A stretch of 60,073 nucleotides of DNA from a virus (IMGVR_UViG_3300016484_000569:1-60073), one strand, 5' to 3'. Shown: positions 3,001 to 60,073, counted from the first letter of the stretch. Made by a program: numbers and translations. Notes: generated by a model not told the origin, from the sequence alone.

Positions 3001-6000
3001 CCTCGTGGAGGCGGGCACCAACAGACTGTGCATCGAAGGTCGCGCCGCTTTTGGAGCGGGCGTAGCGCCGGGCCTGATCCAGCAGGTAGCGGGTCATCTC
3101 GTCGCCGGTGCGGATGTTCAGTGCGTTCAGGAAGGCCTTGATGCCATTCCACACCCGCGCCACGATGCTGGTATCCAGCACGGCGGCGTAGTCGGAGAGG
3201 TATTCCTCGACAGCCTCGGCCCGCGACAGCTTGCTGTTCGCCGCCATGGCAGCATCCACGGCGCGCTGGACGCGCGAGTCGCCTTTGTAGAGCGTCTCCA
3301 TCAGAGCATCGAACTTCGGCCCGGGCATGATGCCCCGCAGCCCGAAGTGACCCAGCGTTTCGTGGGCAAGCACGAAACGAAGCTGCTGTTCGGTGACGAT
3401 CCGGCCGGTGAAGATAATGACCTCACCCTCGCCGAAGGCGTAGCCCATGGCAGGCGCGGTGTCGAAGTCACCCTGCGGACGGGCTGCCACGGCGCGGGCA
3501 TAGAGGTCGGGGAACCGGGCTTTCAGGTCGGCTTGGTCGCGCACAACGGTCACGCGCGGAGCGCGGGCCAGCTTTGCTACGAAGTTGCGCACCAGAAGCT
3601 GCACCCGTCCCGGCGCGATGCGTGCCACGGGGCGGCCATCCAGATCGACGGCGTTGGTGACTTGGTTCATATCCGCCAGAGCGAAAGCGCCACGGGCGGT
3701 CAGCATACCCCGCTGCCAGTTCGGCTCGTTGCGGTCGTTGACATAGGCCAGCAGCGGCGCGTTGCCGCGCATTGCGGTCCGGCCCTCCTCGCCGAGACCC
3801 TTCACCTCGATGGCGGTCTTGCGGAACTCCGTCATAAACCCGGGCGGCAGGTTGTCCCGATCCTGTGCATAAGTGTCCAGCATGGCGTTGAGGCGGGTGA
3901 TGGCGCTTTCGCCCCCCACAGCCTCGTTCAGGGCTGCGGCCTCTGCCACGATCTCCTCGACCGTGCCGACCTTCTTGAAGCGTTCGAACAACTCGTCGGC
4001 CAGCGCGCGGTCTTCCTCCGGCAGGCTCTCGATGTATTTCTTCGCGGCGCGCATCTGCGCCCGCATGGCCGCCGCCAGTTCCGGGTCGGTATCGCGCAGC
4101 CCGGTGGCGCGCTGGCTGGACATTCGGCGCAGTTCGAACAGCGCGGAGTCACGGGCGAAGGTGTCGCCATCAGCGACAGCCTGCTGGACGTCGGCGATCA
4201 GTTCATCGACCTCAGCCACCATGGTGGCGGACAGGTCCTGCTTGACCTTAGCCACCCGCGCCGCTTCGGTTTCCGCGCGCTTGATGGCGTCTTCCTTGGT
4301 GACGACAGCGCGCGTCTGCGCCGCCGTCGGCGCGGCCCGCTCTGCGGTCTGCTGGGCGGCGATCTCCTCTGCGCTGCGGCGCACGGTTTTGGCGCGGGTG
4401 CCACCCTCAACCAGATCGAGGGTCTTCACGGCGTTAGCGGCAGCAGTGGCCTCTGCGCCGCCAGTTCTGGCACCGGTGATCTCGGGCACCGCCTCGGCCC
4501 GGGGCTGGGGTTTACCACGCTGGACGGCTGCCTGCTTCGGCGCGGTGGGTTTTGCGGCAGCCTGCTTCTGGACCTTCGCCTTGCCGGTCGGCGTCGTCGG
4601 CGCGGGCGGCGGTGCAATCAGGGCGGTGAACTTGTCGAGACGCGCCTGTACCTGCGCCGGGTCCTGCAGTCCAGAGGCGTTCATGAACGGGTTGTCGCTG
4701 ACGCTGAACTCGTCGCCGATCAGCGCCCACTCTGCGTCGGTGCGGGCACCCAGCCAGTCGGCGTAGTCACCAATGGTGTCACCCAGTCCGTTGCGCAGGT
4801 CCGTGCTACCACTGGTGGTGTACCCTGAGAGGAACCGGCGGATTTCTTTGAACTTGGACGCCAGTGGGTACGTCGCATCCAGTGCTGGCGCTGTGGGGGC
4901 AGGGGCAGGCGCAGTCGCTTTCGCAGCAGCCTCGCGCTGCTTCTTGGTCAGCGGTTTCCCTTTGACAGGAGCAGCGGCAGGAGCAGCGGCGGCAGCGGCA
5001 GGAGCAGCGGCAGGAGCAGCGGCAGGAGCAGCGGCAGGAGCAGCGGCAGGAGCAGCGGCAGGAGCAGCGGCAGCCATAGCGGCGTCGGCCTGCGCCTTCT
5101 TGGAGGCGTTCTTTGCTTGCTTGGCAGCCTGCGCCTTCGCTTTCAGTGGGTTCTGTGCGGTAGCCTCAGCCACGGGTGCACCCGGGCGAAGTTCATCAGC
5201 CGGTACGAACGTCTCTTGCCCGTCAGGTGTACGTACCTTCTGGTAGAAGCGGCCGTCGGGGCCAGCCTGCGCTGGCTCCGCCATAACCTCGACCGGGTAG
5301 TCATAGTCCTTACTGGCCCACGTAGCGGGTCCCGCAGGGACAGCAGGGGCGGGAGCAGCAGGGGCAGTAGGGGCAGTAGGGGCAGTAGGGGCAGTAGGGA
5401 CAGCCTCGGGCGCAGCAGGGGCAGCAGGTTGCACCATCTCACTCGGAGCCAGCAGCATCGGACGCCGCGCATCCGCCCGCTGGCTGGGGCGCAGGAGAAG
5501 TCGCTCCATGGGGGCGGGAGTGGTGGGCTGCACCATCTCGCTCGGGGCCAACAGCATCGGAGCGCGGCCATCCGCCCGCTGGCTGGGGCGCAGGATCAGG
5601 GTTTCCATGGGGGCAGGCGCAGCGGCAGGCTGCGTAGCGCCGGGGGCGAGGAGCGTGCGGCCTTTCGCCGTGTCGGCTGCGGCAGCAGCTTGGCGCATCT
5701 CCGGGGTGAGCGGCATCGGTCCAAGGGTGGACTGCCACTGGTCGGCCAGTGCCTGCTCCGAGACCCCCAGCGACGGGATCGCCGGGCCGAGCGCGTTGTT
5801 CGCCTCCCAGTTGGCAGCCAGTGCGGCTTCTTCGGGCGACAGGTTAGGGACGACCGGACCCAGCCCCGTCATCGGCGCTGTGGTAGACGCGGCCTGCTCG
5901 GCAGCCTTTGCGTTCAAGTCGACGGGTTTGTTCGGATCGACCGGGGTCTTGGGTTTACCCGCCAGCGCGCCATGCGGCATGATCGTACCAGTCAGCCCGC

Positions 6001-7105
6001 CAAGGCCGAGGCCAGCGAGGAACGACACAGCACCAGCCTCGCCGTAACGGTCGGCGATGTAGGGGAACAGCGTCTTCCAGTCCTTGGGCGACATGTTGTC
6101 CCGCACCGTCGGGTCAAACATCAACGACTCGATGGCAGTCTGCGCGGTCTCGGTTATCCCTTCGACGGCACCAGTGGCGATACCAGAGGTCAGCCGCCGC
6201 CGGATGGCGTTCTTGGCCCCGGTCTCCAGTGCGTTGCGGGCAATCGGGCTGAGGAGCCTGCTCTCGATACCCAGCGTATCGAGGTAGGAGTTCAAGGTCG
6301 CACCACCGATGATGCCCACCTTGGTCTCAAGGCTGGTCATGTCCGCGTTGTTGCTGACTGCCGCGTCGTACATACCCGCAAGATGGGTCGGGAAGTTGAA
6401 CGTCGCCGCGCCGATGGTGCCCGCCTTCGCCACGCTGCTTGCCGCCATGCCTGCACGCGAGGCCCAAGATGCCGCCCCTACGCCCCCGACCAACGAGCCG
6501 ATCAGCATAGGAATGGATTCGATACCCGCGTCGATAGCCTGCTCCCAGATACTGCTGCTCTCCGCGATCAGAGCGGAACGAAGCTGCTCGTTCTCCGAGT
6601 CCCCAAGGAGGCTCTCGACTGGTGCGCGCAGTGCGGCCCCGGTCTCCTCGAACCCAGCAAGTGACGCCGCGGTCCCCGGCAGTGTGCCTAGACCGTAAGC
6701 GAGGTTCTTGAACCCACGACCGATAAGTTCCCCCGTACCCCGGCGCTCCGAGAACGCCTTGGCCCGGGCGGCGTACTCACCCGGTGACATGACCTTCCAC
6801 TCGGGGCCGACCGGCTCGGGACCGGTCGGGGACTGCAGGTAGTCCGGCACACTGAGGACGGACTTGATGTCGTCCGCAGCAAAGGTGCGACCCCCCGCCG
6901 ACATCTCGTTGGTGACCGGGTTGAACAGCAACTGCCCAGACGGCGCGGTCGGCTGCGTCTGTTGCGTGGCAGTCTGCGGCGCGATACCGGCGAGGCCACC
7001 CTGCATCATGGTGTCAACCCGCCCAAGCGACTCCCGCCGGACCCGATCCACATCCACAGCGGTGGGCATCGGGACGGGGGCGAAGGGATCAATGAGTCCG
7101 ACCAT
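1..7105 (-). CDS. Giant internal virion/ejected polyvalent protein, N-terminal 2,368 codons (zincin metallopeptidase domain plus PLxRFG-like C-terminal region); continues at 60073..59454
   Basis: ATG at 7105 overlaps the upstream TAA (TAATG). Hand translation is open to position 1 (MVGLIDPFAPVP...AGRTSLGNLLPGT). Motifs: LAHETLGHFGLR...EEY (~3370-3200) and GYTPILREGKF (~1793-1760). Absent from the ORF track because no stop precedes the window edge. Confidence 0.9.
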   Translation of the reverse strand, partial: MVGLIDPFAPVPMPTAVDVDRVRRESLGRVDTMMQGGLAGIAPQTATQQTQPTAPSGQLLFNPVTNEMSAGGRTFAADDIKSVLSVPDYLQSPTGPEPVGPEWKVMSPGEYAARAKAFSERRGTGELIGRGFKNLAYGLGTLPGTAASLAGFEETGAALRAPVESLLGDSENEQLRSALIAESSSIWEQAIDAGIESIPMLIGSLVGGVGAASWASRAGMAASSVAKAGTIGAATFNFPTHLAGMYDAAVSNNADMTSLETKVGIIGGATLNSYLDTLGIESRLLSPIARNALETGAKNAIRRRLTSGIATGAVEGITETAQTAIESLMFDPTVRDNMSPKDWKTLFPYIADRYGEAGAVSFLAGLGLGGLTGTIMPHGALAGKPKTPVDPNKPVDLNAKAAEQAASTTAPMTGLGPVVPNLSPEEAALAANWEANNALGPAIPSLGVSEQALADQWQSTLGPMPLTPEMRQAAAAADTAKGRTLLAPGATQPAAAPAPMETLILRPSQRADGRAPMLLAPSEMVQPTTPAPMERLLLRPSQRADARRPMLLAPSEMVQPAAPAAPEAVPTAPTAPTAPTAPAAPAPAVPAGPATWASKDYDYPVEVMAEPAQAGPDGRFYQKVRTPDGQETFVPADELRPGAPVAEATAQNPLKAKAQAAKQAKNASKKAQADAAMAAAAPAAAPAAAPAAAPAAAPAAAPAAAAAAPAAAPVKGKPLTKKQREAAAKATAPAPAPTAPALDATYPLASKFKEIRRFLSGYTTSGSTDLRNGLGDTIGDYADWLGARTDAEWALIGDEFSVSDNPFMNASGLQDPAQVQARLDKFTALIAPPPAPTTPTGKAKVQKQAAAKPTAPKQAAVQRGKPQPRAEAVPEITGARTGGAEATAAANAVKTLDLVEGGTRAKTVRRSAEEIAAQQTAERAAPTAAQTRAVVTKEDAIKRAETEAARVAKVKQDLSATMVAEVDELIADVQQAVADGDTFARDSALFELRRMSSQRATGLRDTDPELAAAMRAQMRAAKKYIESLPEEDRALADELFERFKKVGTVEEIVAEAAALNEAVGGESAITRLNAMLDTYAQDRDNLPPGFMTEFRKTAIEVKGLGEEGRTAMRGNAPLLAYVNDRNEPNWQRGMLTARGAFALADMNQVTNAVDLDGRPVARIAPGRVQLLVRNFVAKLARAPRVTVVRDQADLKARFPDLYARAVAARPQGDFDTAPAMGYAFGEGEVIIFTGRIVTEQQLRFVLAHETLGHFGLRGIMPGPKFDALMETLYKGDSRVQRAVDAAMAANSKLSRAEAVEEYLSDYAAVLDTSIVARVWNGIKAFLNALNIRTGDEMTRYLLDQARRYARSKSGATFDAQSVGARLHEVESLGGTGRFSTAPSLRDVNTAAGLLRDSIGGLPMSIEEGWAYLKGQGVNSATTWDGFKSKFLSLANFRARQNPGLAALEELIDETRNISMSLKVSYNERLRLVLNRAIAGEVGGISDKQTETVNRMLYAGQRAAVAQTRAIGDLGNVPLFTMVDGKLTKNAPEIARLRAIGHRSFEEMRDGFEYDVTFDEAGQTVTKKERFDGVKGLTKDSIEWRGYVKLREAMDDIELELLRARYEGALQERDLAFRQIAATVPDGELSAEERAAMTTLAQTYGGLYLSNVTQDPTGRAVLDVDFQTYANDVLRTANAALIGEKSDRFDTLRQLLTEDRVFTTKDGKERRTLPAAMEAQLADDLIAQLQAFKSRMRLGEDRYVVQNKVKQVILSELASKDADKYTKRTIATGYTPILREGKFQMRVEAFIGNKIVRLQDSYREQLVYSQFDTASESMEAVQKTNALFGDNEFEVMAYDQDAGEYRLQKVKLRAVSERALDAIAAPPELNLNEFIRGLRQFDITLTPEKMEDVIVALTRQNSNARNRLERSFTPGAKMDGVMATMRHIESRASTVAKVLMRPRLAELMDRSMESTNRLWNGDAAALQKLKERAEALAANPTAKKEEIADAQRAYEQYAYMYNQTNPGGGLPRRGNQFYNEAASTVAFLDGNRNVDESDFGSGPLVSRIRAATSMMQLGGSVATGALNLLSLVTNGVPYLSSYNPKTAFGGGFSVGSVLAEMSRAGKQVGAPGVTSREANTAEFYDRVAAAVAADPALEAKYGLKAREAAFIAQEIRDGAMIPAQSNALVGTARGRTTSGFMQKFQDGWMWTFNVTEQASRRTLGLAAYRLEFDRKVAAGMSETEADAAARAFAVKAMQYTMGEYSVLNRPPAWRSGIQSFMYMYKVFPTTSVQMFMNLSRNGKVGMIAGIVLLSGIAGLPFAEDLEDLADTLAQRLKISGWQGARYETAQFIDSILPGMSTELLKGLVNEYVPADIAGRTSLGNLLPGT
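4966..5070. repeat. 12-bp tandem repeat CAGGAGCAGCGG (2 + 6 copies, 9-nt interruption) encoding (AAAP)n
   Basis: Read directly from the sequence. Confidence 0.95.
5361..5399. repeat. 9-bp tandem repeat GGGGCAGTA x4 encoding (PTA)n
   Basis: Read directly from the sequence. Confidence 0.95.
5427..5617. repeat. 99-bp imperfect tandem duplication (PMETLILRPSQRADGRAPMLLAPSEMVQP / PMERLLLRPSQRADARRPMLLAPSEMVQP)
   Basis: GCACCATCTC recurs at 5431 and 5530; the translated units align. Confidence 0.9.
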
Positions 7106-36407: not shown

Positions 36408-36576
36408 GTGTTATATAACGTGATGATTTGATGGCTGGAACGGTGTAAAAATGTAAAGTTTTGGTTTTTAGGGTCTTGTTATACGCGCTATACTACAATA
36501 CCGGGGGGTCAGAAAAGTTCAGTCCAACCCCCCACCCCCCCTCCCTGCCTGCTATAGGGCAGGATTTGCGCTTAGA

Positions 36577-36605
36577 TTGACGTTTTCGGCGTCCTATGCC
36601 ATAAA
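36577..36605 (+). promoter_or_regulatory. Sigma70-like early promoter
   Basis: TTGACG, 17 nt, CATAAA. Confidence 0.5.
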
Positions 36606-36639
36606 GAAAGGGTAGCAAGTGACCAAGTAAACAGTAACC

Positions 36640-36667
36640 GGACGGCGACGTCCACGCTCTTTGACAT
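36640..36667 (+). promoter_or_regulatory. boxB-like GNRA hairpin plus boxA (rrn-type antitermination site)
   Basis: GGACG-GCGA-CGTCC then GCTCTTTGACAT. Confidence 0.7.
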
Positions 36668-36735
36668 CGTAGCAAGACTGACATCTGAAACAGTGGTGTC
36701 GCGTCGACACCACATATGCCATATGGAGATATGCA

Positions 36736-37128
36736 ATGGCTATGATTGCTCGGGACCACGTCGAACTGATCGTTCGTTTGGTTGTCACCAAGGAAACCGC
36801 TGGCGGCTTGCTCGGCGGGATTACCGAAGTGGAAGTCCTCACTGCGAATGGTGAGGTTGACGGTCGCTTCTACGGCTTTGCCGACCCGACTGGTCGCATG
36901 GTCCTGAACTATAAGGCCGGTGGCCGCCCGGCGAAACCGGTTCGGGAAGAAAAGCCCGCACCGAAGCCGCTGACCACGGCGCAGAAGGCCGCTATCCCGG
37001 CCAATGGCACGAAAGGCAAACCCAAGGCGAAAGCCGCGGCAAAGCCCGAAGCCGAAGCGCCAAGCGAAATGGAACTGATGCTCGAGCGGATGCTCGAGAA
37101 AAAGCTCAAAGAGATGCTTGGCAAGTAA
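36736..37128 (+). CDS. First early protein, hypothetical, with a Lys/Ala/Pro-rich linker
   Basis: 130 aa; GGAG RBS. Confidence 0.8.
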   Translation: MAMIARDHVELIVRLVVTKETAGGLLGGITEVEVLTANGEVDGRFYGFADPTGRMVLNYKAGGRPAKPVREEKPAPKPLTTAQKAAIPANGTKGKPKAKAAAKPEAEAPSEMELMLERMLEKKLKEMLGK

Positions 37129-37134
37129 GAACCG

Positions 37135-37154
37135 GGCGGGCCGCAAGGCCCGCC
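37135..37154 (+). other. Intergenic GNRA hairpin
   Basis: GGCGGGCC-GCAA-GGCCCGCC. Confidence 0.7.
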
Positions 37155-37182
37155 TCCACCCTCTCTCACAAGGAACCTTAAC

Positions 37183-37347
37183 ATGCAGAAGATCGACGAT
37201 ATCCAGCGCGCCTCCATCCGCCGCAGCGAAGCCTACCTGCGCAAGAAGGCGCTGCAGCGCCCGACAGGCTTTATCCGCGAGTTCCTCGCCGGTGCCCTGT
37301 TCGCCCTCTTTACACTCGCCGTCCTCATCGTGCTCCTCGCCCTGTAA
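37183..37347 (+). CDS. 54-aa early membrane protein (C-terminal TM helix; not in the ORF track)
   Basis: AAGGA RBS; MQKIDDIQRASIRR...FLAGALFALFTLAVLIVLLAL. Confidence 0.7.
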   Translation: MQKIDDIQRASIRRSEAYLRKKALQRPTGFIREFLAGALFALFTLAVLIVLLAL

Positions 37348-37354
37348 ACCCCAC

Positions 37355-37386
37355 AACCCGCCCGGTCACCACCGGGCGGGTTTTTT
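37355..37386 (+). terminator. Intrinsic terminator
   Basis: AACCCGCCCGGT-CACC-ACCGGGCGGGTT plus T-run. Confidence 0.9.
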
Positions 37387-37389
37387 CAT

Positions 37390-38088
37390 GTCTGCTTTAC
37401 ACCGCAAGAGCCGCACAGCGATAGCGGTAGCGTGTAAAGGTAGTTAGTCTGCTCGCTGTCGCTCGCCATACGTCGGGGGGCTGTAGCTCCTCTACACGAA
37501 GTGGCCTGACATCTCACGCTCTACCTTTACACTGCGTCGGGGGGGACTGCCACCTTTACACAGCTAAGTCATTGATATTAAACGGGTATCTAAATTTACC
37601 TTTACATTCGCTTTACACTCGCACCGTAAAGCGAATATGTTCCGTATAATGTAAAGTTTGGGCTAACCCATTGATTCCATTGGGTTTCCCGCTGTAAACC
37701 AACGGCTCACTAGTGTATAAATATATATACTATCTAATTTATCTAAGAAAAAATAATAAACGGCTACTGAAAAACGCTGAGAGCACTGAGGCGAGTTTAC
37801 ACACTGTAAACACAACCCGTAGTTAGCGCGTTTTTAGGGGCCTCTTTTCTGAAAAATCTTAGATAGTTGAGATACCGCCTCACAACCCATTGATTTCCCA
37901 TCACTTTCTCTATACATTTACAAAACCTTTTCGAGATACATCTGCTCAAATTCTTAGATACTTTACACGTATCTTCCCCCTTGACCCCCAAATTTGACAC
38001 CCGAAACCGGATCGGCTAGGTTGTTTGGGCTGGCCGAGGTCACCCCGAATACCTCCGGTTTCCGGCGATCCAACCCATCTTTACACCT
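37390..38088. repeat. AT-rich non-coding region with iterated motifs (putative replication origin)
   Basis: 13 TTTACA/TGTAAA copies, 3 CATTGAT boxes, opposed TATCTAA/TTAGATA sets, AT-rich core ~37715-37760. Confidence 0.65.
37994..38022 (+). promoter_or_regulatory. Sigma70-like early promoter
   Basis: TTGACA, 17 nt, TAGGTT. Confidence 0.65.
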
Positions 38089-38379
38089 ATGGAGTATACC
38101 ACAATGACCTCTCGCTGGACCAAACTCGCCGACCTTTCCGCCAAGGTTAACAAGAAGACCTTGACGGTCCGTCCTCTGACCCGTCCTTACATCTCCATGT
38201 CCGCCGTGGTTTATGACTACCACGTTGGCCATGAGTTCGTGGTTGTGGACCAGTCCTCCCCGCTTAACAACTGCCGTGTCACTGTCTGTGACCGTCACAC
38301 TCTCAAGTCCCACTACGACTTGACCCACCTTAACATCCAGTTCAACCCCGGTCTGTCCCCGGTAGAGGTGGCTCTGTGA
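38089..38379 (+). CDS. Hypothetical early protein
   Basis: ORF after the promoter; the start may be ATG 38104 (GGAG upstream). Confidence 0.7.
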   Translation: MEYTTMTSRWTKLADLSAKVNKKTLTVRPLTRPYISMSAVVYDYHVGHEFVVVDQSSPLNNCRVTVCDRHTLKSHYDLTHLNIQFNPGLSPVEVAL

Positions 38380-38582
38380 TGCGGCTCGGTTTCTCTCAGC
38401 CCGACTACCTCGTCTTTGTCCCTGACTATCATCCAGCCTACGGGTTGGATGATAACACGAGAGCCGAAGTGCTGCGCCTCGTCATGGTAGACAAGCTGCC
38501 TGTAAAGGTGGCTGCCCGTCGTCATCGTCTTGCCAAGTCCACTGTCTACAAGTGGCTGGCTGCTATCAAGAAGGACCTCTGA
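38379..38582 (+). CDS. Small helix-turn-helix protein
   Basis: VKVAARRHRLAKSTVYKW recognition-helix pattern. Confidence 0.65.
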   Translation: MRLGFSQPDYLVFVPDYHPAYGLDDNTRAEVLRLVMVDKLPVKVAARRHRLAKSTVYKWLAAIKKDL

Positions 38583-38583
38583 T

Positions 38584-39390
38584 ATGTTCTCTGCCTCGTT
38601 CAAACTCCTTCACATCCACTCCTATGAGCAGGCTCACACCCTCTGGGAGTCCATCACCCCGATCCGTGGTCGGTCCACTGATGTCCGTCCTCTGTTCCGT
38701 CGGTCCAACGACAATGCCATTGTCCACAAGAACGACCGTGACCAGTCGGTCCGGTTCCGGCTCTATCAGACCGATGTCGTGACGTTTAACACCGATGGCA
38801 CTGTGGACCTCGAACCCTATGCCAGCCGCAGCACTAACAACTTCGCTTGGGCTGTCCTCCGTGGTCGCACTGTCCGCACTCACTGGGCCGACCGTCACCA
38901 CCCCTGTCCCGACCATGTCACCGAGATCGGCGGTCGGTTCTACCACACCCCGGACTTCGTCACTGTCCAGTGGGACAAGGACGCCTATGACTGGTCCTAT
39001 GTGGCCGGTGCTGTGCCGTTCGAGGTCCCTACTCTGAACATGTCCCTTACAAGGGAGGCTCGGAAGGACAGCCGCTATGACGAGTTCGCCCTGTGGATCA
39101 AGACCCAGCTTCGCCTCGGGGTCGATCCGAGGATGGGTGACACATGGCGGGTCAAGCCCTACGACTGGTCCACTCGTGAGGTCAGTCAGTATCTGGCTGT
39201 CGGTCCTGAGGGCTGGTCAGAGATGACCCGCCGGATGTCCCGTTGGACCAACATCGACGCTGACTTGGAGGCTCTGCGGATGGCTGTCTACAAGTGGGCT
39301 GGGTATTGCCTCGACGAGACCGAGGTGCCCTACTTCAACAGCTTCTCTGAGATGACTGCGGCCTTCGCCAAGATGCGTAAGTATGGCTGA
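38584..39390 (+). CDS. Hypothetical early protein (268 aa)
   Basis: AAGGA RBS, ATG 38584. Confidence 0.8.
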   Translation: MFSASFKLLHIHSYEQAHTLWESITPIRGRSTDVRPLFRRSNDNAIVHKNDRDQSVRFRLYQTDVVTFNTDGTVDLEPYASRSTNNFAWAVLRGRTVRTHWADRHHPCPDHVTEIGGRFYHTPDFVTVQWDKDAYDWSYVAGAVPFEVPTLNMSLTREARKDSRYDEFALWIKTQLRLGVDPRMGDTWRVKPYDWSTREVSQYLAVGPEGWSEMTRRMSRWTNIDADLEALRMAVYKWAGYCLDETEVPYFNSFSEMTAAFAKMRKYG

Positions 39391-39393
39391 CAA

Positions 39394-39461
39394 GCTGTCG
39401 AAACAGGGGGTTCGCCCCCTGTCTGCCATGGCTGGCTACCATGGCACTGATGAGACAAGCC
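39394..39461 (+). ncRNA. Type II hammerhead ribozyme
   Basis: UGUC-GAAA-CAGGGGG(UUCG)CCCCCUG-UC^-UGCCAUGG(CUGGCUA)CCAUGGCA-CUGAUGA-GACA-AGCC: complete catalytic core, GUC cleavage triplet, three paired stems. Confidence 0.92.
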
Positions 39462-39479
39462 CTATGGAGAACATACACA

Positions 39480-40472
39480 ATGCGTCCTTCTCTGCTTTCC
39501 GACACCCTCAAGGACCTCATCTCGATCCGTCGCACCGTGGCTATCGAAGGTGCGCCGGGGGGTGGCAAGACCTCGTTGATCCGGTCCGTCGCTGACTACC
39601 TCGGGCTGCACTACATCGAGCGGCACTTGCCCACCATGCTGGTCGAGGACTTCGGCATCCCTGTCATCGGCTCTGACACCCTGCGTTACATGATCCCCGA
39701 CTGGTTCCCCGCCAAGGGGTCCAAGTGGGACGATGGCATCGGTGGGGTCCTCTGCTTCGACGACCGGAACCAAGCCCCGGCTGACATCCAGAAGGTGCTG
39801 GCTAACATCCAGCAGGCTCGGAACCTCCACGGCATCCCGATGGCTGATGGCTGGACTGTCGTGTCCACTGGCAACAGGCAGGAGGATCGGGCTGGTGCCA
39901 ACCGCGTCCTGTCGCACCTCTCTGACCGTGAGACCACGCTGGTCTACGAGACCAACCTCGATGACTGGTCGTCGTGGGCACTGACCAACGGGGTCAAGCC
40001 TGAGGTCGTGGCCTTCATCCGCTTCCGTCCCGGTCTGCTGCACGACTTCGACCCCAACCGCAACAAGAACTCCACGCCCCGTGGCTGGGTCGAAGGTGTC
40101 AGTGCTGTCCTCGGTGCCGTCCCGGCCGAGGCTGAGTATGAGTGCTTCAAGGGTGCCGTCGGTGAGGGGGCTGCTGCTGAGTTCGTTGGCTTCCTCAAGA
40201 TTTACCGAAAGCTGCCCAACCCCGACGCCATCCTGCTTAACCCCGACACCGCGGATGTCCCCTCTGATCCGGCCACCCTCTACGCCCTGTCCGGTGCCAT
40301 CTCCAGCCGCATCTCCGGGGCCAACATCGACCGGGCTGTGACCTACCTGTCCCGCTGCCCCGCGGAGTTCTCTGTGCTGGCCATGTCGATGGCTGTCCGC
40401 CGTGACCCGATGGTGACCTCCACCAAGGGGTTCATCGACTGGTCCATCAAGCACCAGTCGGTGCTGTTCTGA
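39480..40472 (+). CDS. MoxR-like AAA+ ATPase
   Basis: Walker A GAPGGGKT, Walker B-like LCFDD, STGN sensor, STPRGW. Confidence 0.85.
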   Translation: MRPSLLSDTLKDLISIRRTVAIEGAPGGGKTSLIRSVADYLGLHYIERHLPTMLVEDFGIPVIGSDTLRYMIPDWFPAKGSKWDDGIGGVLCFDDRNQAPADIQKVLANIQQARNLHGIPMADGWTVVSTGNRQEDRAGANRVLSHLSDRETTLVYETNLDDWSSWALTNGVKPEVVAFIRFRPGLLHDFDPNRNKNSTPRGWVEGVSAVLGAVPAEAEYECFKGAVGEGAAAEFVGFLKIYRKLPNPDAILLNPDTADVPSDPATLYALSGAISSRISGANIDRAVTYLSRCPAEFSVLAMSMAVRRDPMVTSTKGFIDWSIKHQSVLF

Positions 40473-40488
40473 GTAAGTTCAACACAAC

Positions 40489-40509
40489 GGGGTGGCATGG
40501 TGCCACCCC
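40489..40509 (+). other. Intergenic hairpin flanked by AACACAA direct repeats
   Basis: GGGGTGGCA-TGG-TGCCACCCC. Confidence 0.65.
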
Positions 40510-40530
40510 ACAACACAAGGACACATGACT

Positions 40531-42134: not shown

Positions 42135-43256
42135 ATGCAGTCCATGGAAACCCTCAAGACCCGCCTCGCCAAGGCCAAGACCAGCCTCGTGCTGGAGCAC
42201 CCCTTCGTCGGCACCATCGCACTGGGTATGCCGCACACCTACTCTGATGCGGTGCCCACCGCTGCCACCAACGGCAAACGTGTGCTCTATAACCCGGCCT
42301 TCGTCTCCGATCTGACCGATGAGGAACTCAAGTTCCTTGTGGCCCATGAGTGCATGCACCCCATGCTGGAGCACAACTTCCGTCGTCAGTCCCGCGACCC
42401 CAAGAAGTGGAACATGGCGGCTGACTATGTCATCAACCAACTGCTGACCGACGAGGGCATCGGCAAGTTCATCGAGGGCGGCTGCCTCAACAAGGCGCTC
42501 TACGATGCAGGTCAGGGTGTGTCCGAGCAGATTTATACCCTGCTGCCGGAGCAAGACGGTGACGGCGACGGCATCGGTGGTGCAGGTCAGGACCTTGAGG
42601 ATGGCGAAGGCACCGCACAGGACCAAGCCCAAGAGGCTGCCGAGTGGAAGGTCAAGGTGGCTCAAGCTGCACAGGCTGCCAAGATGATGGGCAAGTTGTC
42701 GGCAGGCATGGCCCGCCTCGTTGACAGCATCCTCAACCCCACCGTTGACTGGCGTGATGTGCTCCAGAAGTTCGTCATCAAGCACAAGACCGACGAGCGC
42801 AGCTTCTCCCGGCCTAACCGTCGCTTCATGTCGCAGGGTCTCTACATGCCGAGCCGCAGCGGTGAGCGGATGGGTCCGATTGCCTTCCTTGTGGACTGCT
42901 CCGGCTCTGTCGACGACGCCCAGCTTGCCCAGATGGCAGCCGAGGTGCGCACGGTGCATGAGGACCTGCGTCCTGAGAAGCTGCACGTGGTATACTTCGA
43001 CGCCGAGGTCACCCACTACGACTGCTTCCTGCCCGACGACACGGTGTCGATCAGCTTCCATGGTGGCGGTGGCACCGATGTCCGCGCAGCCTTCGACTAC
43101 CTCGATGCCGAGGGTCATGCTGACGGACTGGCTTGCACCATCGTGCTGACTGACGGCTACACCCCCTACCCCGAGGGCTGCTCCACCCCGGTCATCTGGG
43201 CCATGACCACTGACATGAACGCCCCGTTCGGTGAGCACTGCCGGGTCAAGGTGTGA
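42135..43256 (+). CDS. DUF2201-type metallopeptidase plus vWA domain protein
   Basis: TAATNG...AHECMH (HExxH)...WNMAADYVIN; MIDAS DCSGS...GGGGTD...LTDG. Confidence 0.88.
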   Translation: MQSMETLKTRLAKAKTSLVLEHPFVGTIALGMPHTYSDAVPTAATNGKRVLYNPAFVSDLTDEELKFLVAHECMHPMLEHNFRRQSRDPKKWNMAADYVINQLLTDEGIGKFIEGGCLNKALYDAGQGVSEQIYTLLPEQDGDGDGIGGAGQDLEDGEGTAQDQAQEAAEWKVKVAQAAQAAKMMGKLSAGMARLVDSILNPTVDWRDVLQKFVIKHKTDERSFSRPNRRFMSQGLYMPSRSGERMGPIAFLVDCSGSVDDAQLAQMAAEVRTVHEDLRPEKLHVVYFDAEVTHYDCFLPDDTVSISFHGGGGTDVRAAFDYLDAEGHADGLACTIVLTDGYTPYPEGCSTPVIWAMTTDMNAPFGEHCRVKV

Positions 43257-43257
43257 C

Positions 43258-46200
43258 ATGGAGACTGTTCGCACAGCACCGTTCGCCGACACCCCGCTTG
43301 AGGCGGGGTGCATCCTTGTCGCTATGGACGAAGGCGGTCTCATCGCCAACCTCTGGCAGATCGTCAGGCTCTATGATGACGGGAAATGTGATGCCCGCTG
43401 CCCGTTCAATCCCGCAAGGACAGACACCTTCTCGGTCGCCCTCAGCGACACCGAGTGGGTCGGACCGGACCTGCAATCGGTGCTGACCTACCTCAAGCTG
43501 ATGGGGATCGAAGCGCGATGAGCAAGGCACAGAAGACCACGACGGGGTGGCGGCGGCGCTACCTCGTCAACGTCTGGCACAGGCAGAAGGTCGTCGAAGT
43601 GGTGCTGGCCCGAGGTAGGGTCAGACGCAAGCCGGACGGGGATCACCACATCCTCATCTCCTCCAAGCGGGACGGCAAGTGGGACTGGTATGTCCTGCCG
43701 GACCACCAGTTCCTGCACCAGCGGAACATGTTCGAAGCAAGTGAGAGGGACCAGATGCTGGCTCATGTCGCAGCCATTCGGCTGGGTGGATACAGCCTGA
43801 TCGGAGAGGTGCCGTCATGGTAACATTCCCCGAAGGCTATGGGTTCGAGCCGGGCGACAAGGCCCTGCTTATGCAGGGCGAGTTCCTGATATCGGTCGGG
43901 CACTTTGTCTGGATCGGAAACGAGTGGGTGGGCTACGGCAAGAAGCGCAACCGTTCGCCGTGGGGGTTCCATCCTTTCGGCGCAGTCGAGAAGAAGAAGG
44001 GCGAACCCAAGGTCAAGGGTCTGTTCTCAGTGGATATGGACACACCGCCCATCGAAGGATCGTTACAACAGGTGGTGACTGCCATGTGCACCATCCACCG
44101 TATGAAGGGAGTGAAGTAGTGGACCCATCAATCGTCGTCGCAATGGTCGCACTGATCGTGGCAGCAGGTTATATCATATACATCCATCACCAGTTGGATG
44201 AGGCAGAGGAGGCCTGCGGTGAGGCAGAGGAAGCGTTGGAGAACGCCGACCGTGCCGTCACCATATATCAACAAGTCTTGACTGATGTTGCCTATGGCAA
44301 CGCTATTCTGGAGGTATCCCCTAATGGTCAAATCGTCGCAACGAAACTCGCTGATCGAGAAGTATCGCTACATTAACGTCGAGTATATCGACTGGTGGGA
44401 CTGTGTTGAGTCCGACTTCGTCGATGACATGAAGAAGGTGGGCATAGAGGTATCGAAGCTATACTTCTCCGGCTTCTGGTCGCAGGGTGATGGTGCCTGC
44501 TTCACTGGCTCCCTCCGTGACGCCAAGGTCTATCTTGACCACCATCATCAGGATCAGTTCCCCATGATCCGCAAGCTGTTGGAACATGGCGGTGATGTCT
44601 GGGCAACCAGCAGGCACAGCGGACGCTACTACCACCACATGTCCACCATCATCAGCGCCGAGAGCGACACGTTCTACAACGTGATGGCCCAGCCGACCGA
44701 GTTCCATGCTGCCGTCGTCGAGCAGTGGGACGAGGCGCTCACCAAGGAGATGTCCGAGTTCGAGACGGCACTGACCGAGCAGTGGCGCACCTATATGCAG
44801 GATGTCTACCGCAAACTAGAGGAGGAGTATGACCATCTGACCAGCGACGAGGCGGTGTGGGATACCATCGAAGCCAACGAGTTGGAGGAGGATGTCGATG
44901 ATGACGAGGATGATTATGATCGAGCCGCCTAAGATACTGGCAGTATGCGACATGTGCTGGGAACATAACCAAGAGGCGTCGTGTTTCCCAATCAAGGACA
45001 TCATGTGGTCCAACATGCACAGCAAGTGGCTCTGTGATTGTTGTTGGGAGGAGCATGACTACGATGATGCCGAGGTGGTAAATGATCTGCCACCACGGGT
45101 CGATGCCTATGCCAGTGATGTCGTGGACAACTATGAAACTATGAAGCAACGGCTGATCGTTGCCGTAACAGCAAGACGTTTGGGAGTATAACACATGACA
45201 CAACTGACCTCATACAAACAGGCGGCAGATTTCTTCGCCAAGGCCCGCAACAAGGAGGCGGGTCGGCCCATCGGCCCGTCCGGCTGGCGTCTCTACAAGG
45301 ACAACGACATCTTCCGCATCACCATCCACGCCAGCGATGTCGCCTATATCATGCCCGATGATACGCTCGTCATGCGGATGGATGACCCTCCGGCCGGGGT
45401 CTCCATGGTGGTGCAGCATATCCTGCCCATCATGATCCAGCGCCGAGGCAAGGACCACTACCGCCTGCACATCCGCAAGCAGGGTGGCAAGCCGCAAGAC
45501 CTCAAGGCCTATGGCCTGACCGACTGGGCAGAACTGCGCACCAAGGGACTGCGCCTGTCGGTCGGGCTGACCATCGACCTCAAGACCCGGCAGCCGGTGG
45601 GCTATGTCGAGCCGGTGCAGGTGGTGGACAGCGATAGGCGCAAGGTCTGGCTGGCGCAGTCTCGCAAGGTCAAGCGCACCCTCAAGACCGTCGCCAAGCT
45701 GGGCGGGTTCCAGCCTCGGATCGACAAGCTGACGGAGAACCGCTGGACATACCAGTCTTTGTTCAGCGCCAGCGAAGCCGACATCCAGATCATCATCGAC
45801 GCCATGCTCAACGACAACATCGAGCCGTTGATCCAGCGCATGGCGGAGACGTTCAAGAAGCATTCCTACTACGAACTTAACGCAACGGAGATGGAGCGTA
45901 TCATCGACCAGATGTTCACATCCAACAGTCTCGCCCTGCGTAAAGCACTCGGCGTTATCGAAATCAAACAGTAAGGTTATACAATGAACCAGACCTACGC
46001 TATCCCGACCCGTGTCAATGTGGTCATCGCCAACGTCCTGTCATCCGGCGCAGCATTCGCCTGCCGGATGGATGATGGTGTCAACTGCTATGTCCCTGTC
46101 AATGTGTCGAACTCGGTCAATGCCAAGATCGGCGACCAGCTTGTCGCCATGATCGTGCCCAACCGCTATACCGACAAGATCGACCGGACCCCGTGGCTCG

Positions 46201-56266: not shown

Positions 56267-56543
56267 GCCAAAGGCGATCCCCTTCGAACGGATCGACTCC
56301 CTCAGACGTCACATGATGCTCACCAAAGGGCAGATGGCACGGTTACTCGGGGTATCCCGAGTAACCTACTACAACTGGCGGGCAGCCGGGCAGGTAGCAC
56401 CACGAAATATGGTGTATACACGGAAGGTGCTCAAGGAACTGCTTAGGATCATGGTCGATCATGAGTGGCCTTCCCCCCGTGTGGTAGCCATGGAGAGCGA
56501 CGAGCGTCTGGTGGAACTACAAAAACTGGTCCACATAGTGTAA
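56259..56543 (+). CDS. XRE/Cro-like HTH regulator
   Basis: LTKGQMARLLGVSRVTYYNW. Confidence 0.8.
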   Translation: MTEPKAIPFERIDSLRRHMMLTKGQMARLLGVSRVTYYNWRAAGQVAPRNMVYTRKVLKELLRIMVDHEWPSPRVVAMESDERLVELQKLVHIV

Positions 56544-56567
56544 GGGTGGGGGTTCACGCCCCCATTC
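56544..56567 (+). other. Intergenic hairpin before the primase gene
   Basis: GGGTGGGGG-TTCACG-CCCCCATTC. Confidence 0.5.
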
Positions 56568-56586: not shown

Positions 56587-59457
56587 ATGGACACAGCAGG
56601 GTTCTTGGGCAGAGTGCTGCCTGACGTTGGGTATTATGTAGCGACTGTTATTAACCCGGATCGTCGCGCGCAGAAGTTTTATGAGAGCATTGATGCTCTT
56701 GCGAACGCAGTGCTTCGCATCGACATGGCAGGCAGCAACGTATACTATGCCATGTCGTCGTTCATCGACACGACCAGTCGAAAACAGGTCAACGTCCTCA
56801 AGACCAAGGCGCTATTCATCGACGTCGATTGTGGTGAGGACAAACCCTTCGCAGATCAGCGCGCTGGTGCCAAGGCCCTCCGCGCCTTCCTCAAGGCCAG
56901 CGGCATGCCCGCCCCCCTCATCGTCTCGTCTGGTCGTGGTCTCCATGTCTACTGGCCGCTGACCGAGGCGCTGGACCCGGCCGACTGGCAGCCGCTGGCT
57001 GACGCCCTGAAAACATGTGCCCAGCATCACGGGTTCGAGATCGACCCCACGGTGACCGCGGACAGTGCCCGGGTGCTGCGCCCGGTGGGCACCCACAATC
57101 CCAAGAACGGCGCAGAGGTGATGATCCTCAAGGACGCGCCAGACTATGACCCGGAAGACCTGCGGCAGGTGCTGGCCCAGTTCATGGGCGTGTCGATGCC
57201 GAAGAAGGCGGCAGCCCGTGGCCTTGCCGCGCAGACCAAGGTTTCCAGCATCACGGCATCGCTGTCGTCCGGTCAGCAATACGCGCCCGCCTCTGCTGGG
57301 AACATCGTCCAAGGATGCGCCCAGATCGCATGGGGTGTGAACCATCAGGGTGATGTCGAGGAGCCGTTCTGGTACGCCATGCTGGGTATCGCTGCCTACT
57401 GCGACGACGCCGAAGGGACGGCCGTCGCATGGTCGGACCAGCACCCCGAATACGACTACTCCAACACCATCACCAAGATGGAGCAGTGGCGGCGGCAGTC
57501 GACCGGCCCGGCCACTTGCAAACGCTTCAAGGAGATGCGCAAGTCCGGCTGCGACAAGTGCCCCTTTGCCAACAAGCTGACCAGCCCGGCCCAGATCGGG
57601 CAGCGGTTCGCTGAGGCCGAGGGTCCGGTAGAAGATGTGTTGGACACCGTCGCCCACGACGTGCCCATGCCCAAGGGCTACAAGCGGATGGCAAGCGGCG
57701 GCATTGCACAGGACGTCGAGGGCACCGACATCGAGGTGACCACCTTCGACATCTACCCGGTGGGCTATGGGCGCGACGAGGCGCTGGGCTACGAGGTGGT
57801 GCGCTACCACTGGAAGCGCCCGCACAAGGGCTGGCAGGAACTCAAGTTCCGGCAGGCTTACCTCGCCGACGGCAACCGCGAGTTCCCCACCGCCATCGCA
57901 GACCAAGGTATCGTTCTCAGCCACAAGGTTCACACCGAAAGGTTCCAGATGATGTTGCGCTCTTACATGGACGAACTGCGCAAGATGCGGACCACCACCA
58001 ACCTCTACACCTCACTCGGCTGGAAGGAGGACAACACCATCTTCCTGCTCGGCACGAAGCAGGTGCGGAAGGACGAACAAGGGCAGACGGTCACCGAGGA
58101 TGTGGTGCTGTCGTCGTCGGTCCAGCGCACGGGCGCAGGGATGTACGTCACCAAGGGTGAACATGCGAAGTGGCTCAAGGTCACCAAGCTGATGCAACTG
58201 GCTGGTCTCAAGGCGCACAAGTTCGCCCTCGGCGTCTCCATGTCCGCGCCGCTCTACCAGTTCACCGGTCTCAAGGGTGCGGTGCTGTCCCTCTACGGGC
58301 CGACCGGCAGCGGCAAGTCGCTGGCCCAGCTTGCGATGCAGTCCGTCTGGGGCGACCCGGTCGAGTTGCACTTCCAGTCGAAGTACACCCAGAACGCCCT
58401 GTTCACCCGCCTGTCGTTCTACTGCAACCTGCCCATGACCATCGACGAGACCACCATGATGCCCGACAAGGAGGTCGGGGACTTCATCTACGGGGTCACA
58501 CAGGGTCGGGACAAGAGCCGCCTCAATGCCAGAGCCGAGGAGCGTGATGCCCGCACATGGGCCGCGCCCGTGGCGCTGTCGACCAACCGCCCGATGGGCG
58601 GCAAGCTGCTGGCTGCCTCGTTCGAGACGGATGCGCAGATGGCGCGGATGCTGGAACTGGCGCTCGATGCGTCAGACATATTCTCAGAAGGCACCGAGAC
58701 AGGACGCAAGTTCTACGAGACCATCACCCGCAACCACGGGCACGTCGGCCCGAAGGTGATCCACTACCTTGTGGAGATGGGTGAAGACGCTGCACGGAAG
58801 CTGGTCACGGACCACATGAGCAACTTCCAGAAGAAGTACAAGGTACGGTTCACTGGTGAGGAGCGGTACTGGGAGGTGATGATCGTCCTTGCCGATCTGA
58901 TGAACAAGATCGCCGTGGAGAAAGGGTGGGTGGAGTACGAGTACGAAGACGCCACCGAGTTCGCCCTGCTGCAGGCTGGCATGATCCGGCGCAGCATCGC
59001 CGCCACCAAGGTGGACGAGTTCGATATGCTGGCAGAGTTCCTGAACGAGATGCGGGATGCCACGGTCGTCATGATGAACACCGATGGCGGCGGCACCTAT
59101 TACGATCCGCTTCGGCTTCCTCGGGGAGAGGTGCGGGTGCGTATGGACCTATACCGCAAGACCATGCAGTCCCCCTTCGACCGCGGCATCCTGCTGGTGG
59201 ACCGGGTCTTCTTCCGCAAGTGGCTGTCCAGCAAGGGCGGCGACTTCAAGCGGCTGGTGGACATCCTTGCTGCGGACGCAGCCGACGCCACCCCGCACTC
59301 CAAGAAGGCCATGCTCGGGCGCGGCACAGAACTCCGCCTGCCACAGACCTATGTGCTGGGCATCAACCTCAGCCACGACCGACTGAGGGACATGCTCAAC
59401 AACCAAGACTCTCGGCCGGAGAACATGACCCTCGGTCAGTTGCGCGCGGTGCCCTAA
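56587..59457 (+). CDS. Primase-helicase (AEP/RepB-like primase, Cys cluster, DUF927-like ATPase)
   Basis: FIDVD, SSGRGLHVYW, RVLRPVGT.N.K; C...PATC...CDKCP; GPTGSGKS, TIDE, GRDKSR. Confidence 0.88.
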   Translation: MDTAGFLGRVLPDVGYYVATVINPDRRAQKFYESIDALANAVLRIDMAGSNVYYAMSSFIDTTSRKQVNVLKTKALFIDVDCGEDKPFADQRAGAKALRAFLKASGMPAPLIVSSGRGLHVYWPLTEALDPADWQPLADALKTCAQHHGFEIDPTVTADSARVLRPVGTHNPKNGAEVMILKDAPDYDPEDLRQVLAQFMGVSMPKKAAARGLAAQTKVSSITASLSSGQQYAPASAGNIVQGCAQIAWGVNHQGDVEEPFWYAMLGIAAYCDDAEGTAVAWSDQHPEYDYSNTITKMEQWRRQSTGPATCKRFKEMRKSGCDKCPFANKLTSPAQIGQRFAEAEGPVEDVLDTVAHDVPMPKGYKRMASGGIAQDVEGTDIEVTTFDIYPVGYGRDEALGYEVVRYHWKRPHKGWQELKFRQAYLADGNREFPTAIADQGIVLSHKVHTERFQMMLRSYMDELRKMRTTTNLYTSLGWKEDNTIFLLGTKQVRKDEQGQTVTEDVVLSSSVQRTGAGMYVTKGEHAKWLKVTKLMQLAGLKAHKFALGVSMSAPLYQFTGLKGAVLSLYGPTGSGKSLAQLAMQSVWGDPVELHFQSKYTQNALFTRLSFYCNLPMTIDETTMMPDKEVGDFIYGVTQGRDKSRLNARAEERDARTWAAPVALSTNRPMGGKLLAASFETDAQMARMLELALDASDIFSEGTETGRKFYETITRNHGHVGPKVIHYLVEMGEDAARKLVTDHMSNFQKKYKVRFTGEERYWEVMIVLADLMNKIAVEKGWVEYEYEDATEFALLQAGMIRRSIAATKVDEFDMLAEFLNEMRDATVVMMNTDGGGTYYDPLRLPRGEVRVRMDLYRKTMQSPFDRGILLVDRVFFRKWLSSKGGDFKRLVDILAADAADATPHSKKAMLGRGTELRLPQTYVLGINLSHDRLRDMLNNQDSRPENMTLGQLRAVP

Positions 59458-60073
59458 TTCGCGGTGAGCAGGTCAACCATCCGCTGCAGATCGGCCTCAG
59501 CAGCATCCGGGGCGGACCGCAGGGTCCGCTCCACCGCCGGGCGACGGGCTTCTTTCAGCGCCTTCTGGGAGTTCTTGACGAAGTTCCGCACCTCCAGCGC
59601 CGTGCCCTTGGCCCCGGCGTTCCAGTCCTCCACGGCTGCCTCGATCTCGCGCGCCCGGGCGCGATCTCCGCGCATCGTCGCCTTGATCCATGCCGTGCGG
59701 AACCCGGTCGCAACCTCCCGCTGGTAGTCGGTCATCCGCTTGGCAGAGCGGATCATCTCATACTGCTTGGCCGCTTCGGACGGGTAGAAGCCCAGCGCCC
59801 GGGCAACCACGGTGCCAGTGGTCATTTGGTCCGAGACGACATAGCCGCGCCGATCCACGATGGCCCCGTTCTGCAGGTAGGCATAGGTGTCCCCCAGCGC
59901 GCGAGCCATGGTGATGGGCGACTCCCGAAACACATCCTCCAGCGACGTCGTGGTGGAGAATGGCGCAGCGATGGCGTCCGCCGCGAACTGCGCGGTGCCG
60001 ATCAGCATCGACGGTGCCGGTCCGAAGATTTCCCCCAGACCACGCAGTGAGTCGCTTCCAGCCAGCAGGATGT
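59454..60073 (-). CDS. C-terminal 206 aa of the giant internal virion protein (continuation of 7105..1)
   Basis: Base 1 plus bases 60073-60072 form codon GAC; the frame reads ...LLPGT-D-ILLAGSDSLRGLGEIFGPAPSM, in frame with the 59454..60008 ORF. Confidence 0.9.
   Translation of the reverse strand, partial: ILLAGSDSLRGLGEIFGPAPSMLIGTAQFAADAIAAPFSTTTSLEDVFRESPITMARALGDTYAYLQNGAIVDRRGYVVSDQMTTGTVVARALGFYPSEAAKQYEMIRSAKRMTDYQREVATGFRTAWIKATMRGDRARAREIEAAVEDWNAGAKGTALEVRNFVKNSQKALKEARRPAVERTLRSAPDAAEADLQRMVDLLTAN

Follow-up and report, generated by a model that had tools for sequence, protein, structure and literature searches.

Organization of the control region

The region analyzed here lies in a 60,073-base virus record from IMG/VR (IMGVR_UViG_3300016484_000569; CheckV completeness 100%), referred to at its full length as the window, and consists of a divergent control region together with the beginning of a rightward operon. 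From ~36.4 kb leftwards the minus strand encodes terminase, portal, internal virion proteins, a tail fibre and a giant protein exceeding 2368 amino acids (aa); from ~36.7 kb the plus strand encodes an AAA ATPase, a DUF2201 peptidase-like/vWA protein, DNA polymerase, helicase and primase, which are early and replication genes. The GC content drops from ~64% to 50% at the control region. An earlier reading, made from the sequence alone (the sequence-only reading), had proposed a control system acting at the RNA level on the first-expressed genes, and at the level of sequence two of its components hold, namely a Nus-type boxA signal on an early leader and a hammerhead ribozyme before the AAA ATPase gene. 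The features of the region are collected in Table 1.

Table 1. Features of the control region and the adjoining genes, in window coordinates
Feature	Position	Strand	Description
P1 promoter-like element	36577..36605	+	TTGACG (-35), 17-nt spacer, TGn + CATAAA (extended -10 type)
boxB-like hairpin	36640..36653	+	5-bp stem, GCGA loop; ends 2 nt before boxA
boxA-like 11-mer GCTCTTTGACA	36656..36666	+	invariant in 7/7 close leaders
Second leader hairpin	36693..36713	+	9-bp stem, 3-nt loop; from stem scan and alignment
Gene A	36736..37128	+	130 aa, no family match; variable cargo gene
Intercistronic hairpin of genes A and B	37134..37155	+	9-bp stem, GCAA loop; no U-tract after
Gene B	37183..37347	+	54 aa, hydrophobic C-terminus
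Intrinsic terminator T1	37355..37386	+	12-bp stem, 9 pairs GC, then T6; z = -6.1
Segment read as 'pseudoknot'	37392..37446	+	variable, flanked by two CTTTACA-family repeats; RNA structure unsupported
Non-coding spacer	37395..38085	.	CTTTACA repeat array, AT-rich core; repeats conserved in relatives
Conserved 28-nt element	37462..37489	+	just after T1; partial second copy 37535-37561
P2 promoter-like element	37994..38022	+	TTGACA, 17-nt spacer, TAGGTT
268-aa gene	38584..39390	+	without family; stop 3 nt before ribozyme
Type II hammerhead ribozyme	39394..39467	+	Rfam match, core, fold, covariation
AAA (MoxR-like) ATPase gene	39480..40472	+	phrog_1297, E = 2.5e-64; GGAG ribosome-binding site 39466-39469
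Hairpin after ATPase gene	40489..40509	+	9-bp stem, 3-nt loop, no U-tract; z = -2.8
DUF2201 metallopeptidase-like + vWA-like gene	42135..43256	+	PF13203, E = 7e-51; PF09967, E = 1.2e-19

A type II hammerhead ribozyme before the ATPase gene

The hammerhead is genuine and, by prediction, self-cleaving. Its core is complete, both when read directly and in the Rfam alignment (CUGAUGA at 39447-53, GAAA at 39400-03 and GUC at 39421-23). Stem II, formed by 39397-99 paired with 39454-56, is open, and stems I and III are loop-closed hairpins of 8 bp each (39424-39446 and 39403-39422, respectively); a pseudoknot of 4 bp joins loop I (39434-37) with the tail (39458-61), and the predicted cleavage site follows C39423. 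The unconstrained minimum-energy fold consists of the same three helices. With permissive filters, the Rfam model Hammerhead_II (RF02276) matches 39396-39465 at 33.2 bits, the E-value being 4.5e-4 for the stretch and 1.4e-6 for the whole genome; a search of the whole window against Rfam at gathering thresholds gave zero matches.

Relatives were collected through the ATPase protein, which has 186 relatives in IMG/VR; 80 of these loci were fetched and are given L-numbers below. The search with RF02276 covered the records of 50 of the 80 loci and matched 17 of them (9 above the gathering score; best match 53.2 bits; up to 3 copies per record), while at the same E-value limit of 0.01 none of 14 control genomes was matched. 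A covariance model built from six close copies was then searched on 66 of 81 sources (L004, L009, L010, L022, L024, L030, L034, L040, L047, L049, L063, L065, L071, L080 and L081, each an apparent duplicate or short, were left out), and it found 26 copies in 20 of the 66, all on the coding strand. In the model-fitted alignment of these 26 copies 98.9% of cells are paired and double-sided changes occur in 15 of the 19 nested pairs, against 31-48% of cells paired in slid controls of the alignment. The pseudoknot is paired in 100% of the cells that hold letters, with one compensatory change (L025), and the raw alignment rows plainly show how diverse the stem sequences are.

Hammerheads occupy gene junctions in a constant register. 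Upstream, an open frame with a stop-to-stop length of 45 codons or more closes within a few nt of the first base of the ribozyme in 24 of the 26 copies; downstream, at 9-47 nt from the ribozyme's end, 23 of 26 have a GGAG-type ribosome-binding site with the start codon of a real gene. A copy stands directly before the ATPase gene in 15 of the 66 sources; other copies are followed by a homologue of the 268-aa gene, by a 105-aa gene, or by others. In L003 (4387-4954) an extra gene of 148 aa (139 aa from an alternative start codon) lies between two hammerheads. L026 and L028 were seen to carry three hammerheads each within ~1.4-1.6 kb of their early operons.

The junction upstream of the ATPase gene takes other forms elsewhere in the clade. 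In L013-L020 the place of the hammerhead is held by TTGACA-N14-TGn-AATGAT (TGCGAT in L020), an extended -10 type of promoter-like element situated ~90-50 nt ahead of where the ATPase gene starts; in most remote relatives there is no gap, the preceding gene running to within a few nt of that start. (Classification by gaps between open reading frames is confounded by spurious frames running through the ribozyme, and was used only for the promoter-like and tight classes.) No other ribozyme was found by Rfam at gathering thresholds in 13 loci that have no hammerhead. What appears to be new here is the exact register of stop codon, ribozyme and ribosome-binding site, together with the exchange of the ribozyme in relatives for a promoter-like element or for nothing.

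P1 and the boxB-boxA leader

In the first leader of the rightward arm, the TTGAC of P1 (36577-81) is invariant in 7/7 aligned leaders (the window and six close relatives) and stands in the window 80 nt upstream of boxA, with extended -10-like spacing. TTGAY occurs 52-100 nt (mostly 61-83) upstream of boxA in 21 of 25 boxA leaders; by chance it is found in 24% of random 130-nt windows. The boxA 11-mer is invariant within surroundings that are ~70% identical, and is preceded by a stem of 4-5 bp with a 4-nt loop that ends 2 nt before it in the window, L003, L005, L006, L008 and L011, and 1 nt before it in L041. The stems differ in every sequence, and the loops are GCGA, GGAA, GAAA, GAAG or AGAC. 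The boxB-boxA pair which the sequence-only reading had proposed is real at 36640-36666, but not at the start coordinate of that reading: the hairpin at 36579-36593, probably the one taken for boxB, lies in the 17-nt spacer of P1 and is not kept as a hairpin in relatives.

Conservation of boxA extends to more distant loci. For counts of this kind 54 of the 81 sources were used, a source being dropped if it had less than 3.5 kb upstream or if its upstream sequence was identical. Of these 54 relatives, 27 carry the pattern YTCTTTRACA in the plus strand of their upstream flank; expressed by strand, it occurs in the plus-strand leaders of 24 distinct relatives, versus 4 minus-strand matches (5 with the window's own). 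In many relatives boxA is GCTCTTTAACAA or GTTCTTTAACAA, fitting GYTCTTTAANA, which is given as the gamma-proteobacterial boxA consensus by Baniulyte et al. (2017; PMC5725501); by our own reading of the contexts, 14 distinct boxA contexts of relatives match this consensus at 11/11. A literature search on the G-variant of the motif returned irrelevant papers only.

The position of boxA relative to the first gene differs across the clade, lying 78-90 nt before the start codon in the window (78 nt) and its close relatives, with the second leader hairpin between, and 26-43 nt before it in many remote relatives. This second hairpin shows a compensatory change, GGCAC/GTGCC in several relatives versus GACAC/GTGTC in L007. 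The same hairpin, 2-nt gap and 14-mer boxA occur in the divergent early region of the cultured Rhizobium phage RHph_TM3_14A (L086, MN988472.1; 17740-17777). In that phage a terminator is seen ~1.35 kb past boxA, followed by an AT-rich spacer.

Upstream of P1 the window holds a conserved block (36442-36555) with TGTAAAG, an invariant TACTACAAT, a G6...C6 hairpin and a C-rich run, recognisable even in the distant L029, L033 and L038; it could represent another promoter, or a 5' end that is structured.

Exchangeable genes between conserved signals

The two small genes that follow the leader are not constant. Among seven close relatives gene A is of 3 mutually unrelated types and gene B of 2 unrelated types, and the leader, hairpin and terminator around them remain unchanged while the genes swap (window 36736-37347, L003-L011). 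The slot behaves as a site for exchangeable cargo, and slots like it frequently hold genes for host takeover or anti-defence; because genes A and B come in three and two unrelated types, there is no conserved N-like partner.

The hairpin between the two genes folds better than any of 200 shuffles (z = -3.5; 0/200) and is kept in 6/6 close relatives, with compensatory changes in L003 and L007; when the pair list of L003 was re-registered by ourselves, three double-sided changes and no broken pair were counted. T1 is nearly invariant in relatives. In many of them a crude detector finds a terminator-like hairpin with a T-run upstream of the 28-nt element, often 30-100 nt before it.

The spacer, its repeats and P2

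T1 is separated from the first gene of the ribozyme-bearing operon by ~0.6-0.7 kb of conserved non-coding DNA. A CTTTACA(C) array in both orientations occupies this part of the genome: CTTTACA occurs 16 times in the window versus 1.5 expected, and 11 of the 16 fall within 36452-38085. An AT-rich core (~37700-37760), CTTAGATA repeats and two copies of AACCCATTGATT are also observed within 36452-38085, and AACCCATTGATT recurs in the AT-rich spacer of RHph_TM3_14A (~19762). The repeat region looks like a candidate origin or operator, unlike RNA structure.

Conservation of the 28-nt element far exceeds that of the sequence around it; 47 of the 54 relatives, whose ATPases are only ~65-89% identical, have its 14-nt core (at most 1 mismatch). 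The element forms no stable RNA fold (z = +0.25) and is probably a DNA site, which may be an origin, a packaging site or the target of a regulator. As a repeated promoter for a phage polymerase it was rejected, the one good copy in the window being the chance expectation for a short pattern. Within P2, TTGAC and GCTA (the TA of which forms the first two bases of the proposed -10) are invariant in 5/5 aligned sequences.

The segment at 37392-37446, which had been taken for a possible pseudoknot, does not survive comparison. Its folding is unexceptional (z = -1.4; 19/200 shuffles fold as well), its arms are CTTTACA repeats, and it is the variable part of the spacer in relatives, with other letters in related contigs. 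A JUMPstart/ops match (RF01707) within it, at 37416-37434, was rejected (18.1 bits versus a gathering score of 35, E = 2.2; changed in 4/4 aligned relatives); the same positions match the ops element of JUMPstart at 11/12, which is probably chance.

Hairpins at other junctions

The hairpin after the ATPase gene is present as the sequence-only reading had it, and is common only to L003 and L005, where the stem is invariant and shows no covariation. The repeats said to flank it are a CA-rich linker, of a kind also found after hammerheads, and the sequence leading into the ribosome-binding site of the gene that follows. Perfect stems of at least 8 bp are about twice as frequent on the rightward arm as in shuffles (28 versus 12.3, sd 4.1). 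Further perfect GC-rich hairpins without a U-tract are seen at 43290-43310, 56341-56366 and 56544-56567, at apparent later junctions in the list of open reading frames. Because perfect stems also occur at later junctions, such hairpins are not special to the first-expressed genes.

Two probable transcription units rather than one system

The six elements listed by the sequence-only reading had been joined in a single system acting on one antiterminated transcript. Four of them, the boxB-boxA pair, the GCAA hairpin, the strong terminator and the hammerhead, are real and conserved in relatives. Joining them is unsupported because the boxA leader belongs to a two-gene unit that ends at T1, because the conserved spacer and P2 precede the ribozyme operon, because boxA and hammerheads occur independently among the 54 relatives, and because one of the six elements is unreal and another poorly conserved. 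Co-occurrence in relatives, the check that the sequence-only reading had itself proposed, gave boxA in 27 and a hammerhead in 19 of the 54: both are present in 11, boxA only in 16, the hammerhead only in 8, and 19 have neither. Of the 11 sources with both, nine are the window and those nearest to it, and shared descent accounts for the co-occurrence seen in the closest relatives. The order of boxA, terminator and 28-nt element is conserved. We conclude, as far as sequence can tell, that the region is divided into two transcription units, both served by ordinary signals of their own and by a conserved sigma-70-like -35 hexamer each; the elements are of known kinds and form no new kind of mechanism, and their joint action is unsupported.

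Genome context

No DNA-level match to the region was found in cultured phages by blastn. At the protein level the ATPase is ~30% identical to MoxR-like ATPases of N4-like phages, and the DNA polymerase is 37-39% identical to the enzymes of RHph_TM3_14A and Pseudomonas phage KPP25, with which the window phage has a two-armed genome layout in common. The first 50 kb of KPP25 and RHph_TM3_14A gave no Rfam match at gathering thresholds, and our own hammerhead model found nothing in the KPP25 or RHph_TM3_14A (first 50 kb) records, nor in L083. The one match among genome contigs is a 7.4-kb contig in a metagenome-assembled genome labelled 'uncultured actinobacterium', and is possibly mis-binned; the single boxA-pattern match in that genome equals the count for the reversed-pattern control, and no rRNA gene adjoins it.

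At the ends of the record, the giant minus-strand open reading frame (2-7105) is cut off by the left end, and at the right end a second open frame of the minus strand (59454-60071) comes in; the record is probably a circularly permuted assembly with one protein of ~2570 aa. The giant protein matches only PHROG 11358 (unknown function), and for its 2368+ aa no Pfam family and no meaningful PDB sequence match were found. The PDB sequence search tied it to no solved RNA polymerase, such as the N4 virion enzyme.

Proposed explanation and alternatives

The explanation that we regard as probable is that of an early control region of a lytic-type phage, in which separate cis elements of known types serve two transcription units. 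In the first unit, host RNA polymerase would start at the sigma-70-type P1 and transcribe a leader of ~120 nt with a hairpin and then boxA; the nascent hairpin-boxA would recruit a host NusB/NusE elongation complex, making transcription fast and Rho-resistant, so that the two small exchangeable cargo genes would be expressed, with the intercistronic hairpin protecting or partitioning the message and T1 ending the transcript. Conserved, repeat-rich DNA, a candidate origin or operator, would separate this unit from the second, which would start at P2 and carry the hammerhead between the stop of the 268-aa gene and the ribosome-binding site of the ATPase gene. Cutting after C39423 during transcription would leave the upstream mRNA with a 3' hairpin (stem III) and a 2',3'-cyclic phosphate, and the ATPase/vWA mRNA with a 5'-OH, a first base paired in the 8-bp stem I and a fixed leader of ~55 nt, which would make the latter a poor substrate for 5'-end-dependent decay. 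The ribozyme would in this way make the two halves independent of each other in stability and translation and insulate the ATPase gene from the upstream cassette; the effects on stability are drawn from what is known of RNase E and of synthetic ribozyme insulators.

Sequences, conservation, covariation and gene-junction anatomy are observed; transcription starts, Nus binding, cleavage in vivo and effects on stability we infer from them. Several points weigh against this explanation. A consensus promoter scan flagged neither P1 nor P2, both of which are proposed solely from conserved hexamers and spacing. The boxA of the window matches the consensus GYTCTTTAANA at 10/11, with G for A at position 8, and that consensus is gamma-proteobacterial; about half of the relatives (27/54) have no recognisable boxA. 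The window hammerhead, at 33.2 bits, is below the Rfam gathering score of 37, and the alignment used for covariation, being fitted to the model, favours pairing and includes the model's six building sequences. The count behind the independence of boxA and hammerhead takes no account of phylogeny, and all main elements co-occur in the 8 nearest non-identical relatives. Finally, because a boxA before a strong terminator is the layout of lambda pL-nutL-N-tL1, read-through into the second unit is possible.

Such read-through belongs to the model of the sequence-only reading, in which one programme of six elements runs on a transcript from P1 that is modified at boxB-boxA, crosses T1 and the spacer, is cut by the hammerhead and is capped by hairpins. 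The succession of promoter, nut-like site, small gene(s) and strong terminator mirrors lambda pL-nutL-N-tL1, all elements are on the same strand in the same order, and boxA, hairpin, terminator and hammerhead are found together in the relatives closest to the window. However, a second promoter-like element is conserved before the operon, a first gene of three unrelated types means that there is no fixed boxB-binding protein, rrn-type complexes counter mainly Rho-dependent termination, boxA and hammerhead are independent across the relatives, and of the remaining elements the 'pseudoknot' is unreal and the last hairpin poorly conserved; the model is judged quite improbable. A different role for boxA would be to repress or attenuate the first gene through Nus factors, in the manner of suhB; a Nus complex positioned near the ribosome-binding site would lessen translation, permit Rho termination and limit expression of the cargo. 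In many remote relatives the distance of boxA from the start codon falls within the 50-nt limit applied in finding suhB-type sites (PMC5725501), but the window and its close relatives exceed it and place a second hairpin in between, and the boxB-boxA order and the distance to the promoter resemble those of rrn leaders; this role is considered unlikely.

The hammerheads themselves might be passengers, that is, selfish or neutral punctuation that moves with gene cassettes and brings no regulatory benefit to the ATPase/vWA module. Their presence is patchy (19/54 relatives), the extra gene of L003 is flanked by two copies, the genes downstream differ between copies, and a promoter-like element or a tight junction serves in those relatives that lack a hammerhead, the 13 such loci searched having no other Rfam ribozyme. 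Against this stand the intact core and the pervasive compensatory changes, which point to selection for the fold, the fixed register to stop codon and ribosome-binding site, and the retention of the copy before the ATPase gene across lineages whose ATPases are only 69-89% identical; passenger status seems very improbable. A small chance is given to a further combination, in which the hammerhead would stand in for a promoter as a portable element independent of the host and a boxA-modified transcript would cross the terminator, making a lambda-like antitermination cascade in which RNA catalysis, in place of host RNases, defines where messages begin and end. The ATPase junction would then have used a ribozyme, a sigma-70 promoter or tight translational coupling by turns in evolution, and the purpose of the ribozyme would be a defined, hairpin-protected 5'-OH end with a standard leader downstream.

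Comparison with known systems

Among known RNA elements the ribozyme belongs with the RF02276 type II hammerheads, with which it has in common the core, the permuted topology (stem II open) and the pseudoknot between loop I and the 3' tail. In Perreault et al. (2011; PMC3088659), type II hammerheads with this pseudoknot are already described, as are prophages with multiple hammerheads flanking single genes or short blocks, for which processing of long phage transcripts is proposed. The context is likewise similar, as the ribozymes described there flank genes or short blocks in phage-derived operons; the carrier differs from the published prophages in being an uncultured phage clade of lytic-type layout. 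A parallel with the RNase III sites of T7, drawn by the sequence-only reading, is essentially the suggestion found in Perreault et al. (2011). A 2019 review (PMC6765202) still calls the role of bacterial and phage hammerheads undetermined. The clade, with its 186 IMG/VR relatives, offers a natural comparison of ribozyme, promoter-like element or nothing at one junction.

The leader resembles the antitermination leaders of rrn operons (boxB-boxA-boxC; NusA/B/E/G, SuhB, S4). rRNA operons have a hairpin and then boxA, and the likeness here consists in a hairpin followed directly by a boxA-like sequence of the form GCTCTTT(A/G)ACA, a few tens of nt past a putative sigma-70-type promoter, with many relatives carrying the exact rrn 12-mer; the differences are that the leader here belongs to a phage mRNA, preceding two small protein genes and no rRNA, and that in the window it has G at consensus position 8. 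With lambda nutL and nutR it has in common a boxA and a GNRA-like hairpin on an early leader, small gene(s) and a strong terminator. The lambda nut order is boxA then boxB, whereas in the window boxB precedes boxA and, with gene A in its three types, no N-like protein is conserved; a lambda-type nut site was therefore rejected, its order being reversed and the first gene being non-homologous among close relatives and without family match. The suhB-type BoxA (PMC5725501) is similar in lying in the 5' untranslated region of a protein gene, and the remote relatives place theirs less than 50 nt from the start codon; that of the window differs in its greater distance upstream and in the intervening hairpin. 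The sharing of an rrn-type boxB-boxA leader with RHph_TM3_14A suggests that non-lambdoid phages borrow host Nus machinery for their first transcripts. A literature search found no paper on such borrowing, and the supplements of PMC3088659 and PMC5725501 may list related hammerheads or boxA sites. RHph_TM3_14A is thus a possible laboratory model for the hairpin-boxA leader.

RNase III processing in T7 is comparable in that a polycistronic early RNA is cut between genes to give hairpin-protected ends, the cutting here being predicted to be autocatalytic. RNase III substrates are long duplexes of roughly two turns, often with an internal loop. The plain hairpins of the window are 9-12 bp and thus shorter than typical substrates, and those at 37134 and 40489 were rejected as T7-type sites, their stems of 9 bp being too short. 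RiboJ-type insulators provide a parallel for the arrangement downstream, as a ribozyme right before the ribosome-binding site standardises the 5' leader; because the register of the ribozyme to stop codon and ribosome-binding site is fixed, the idea that it makes mRNA ends and insulates the gene that follows is directly testable with reporters.

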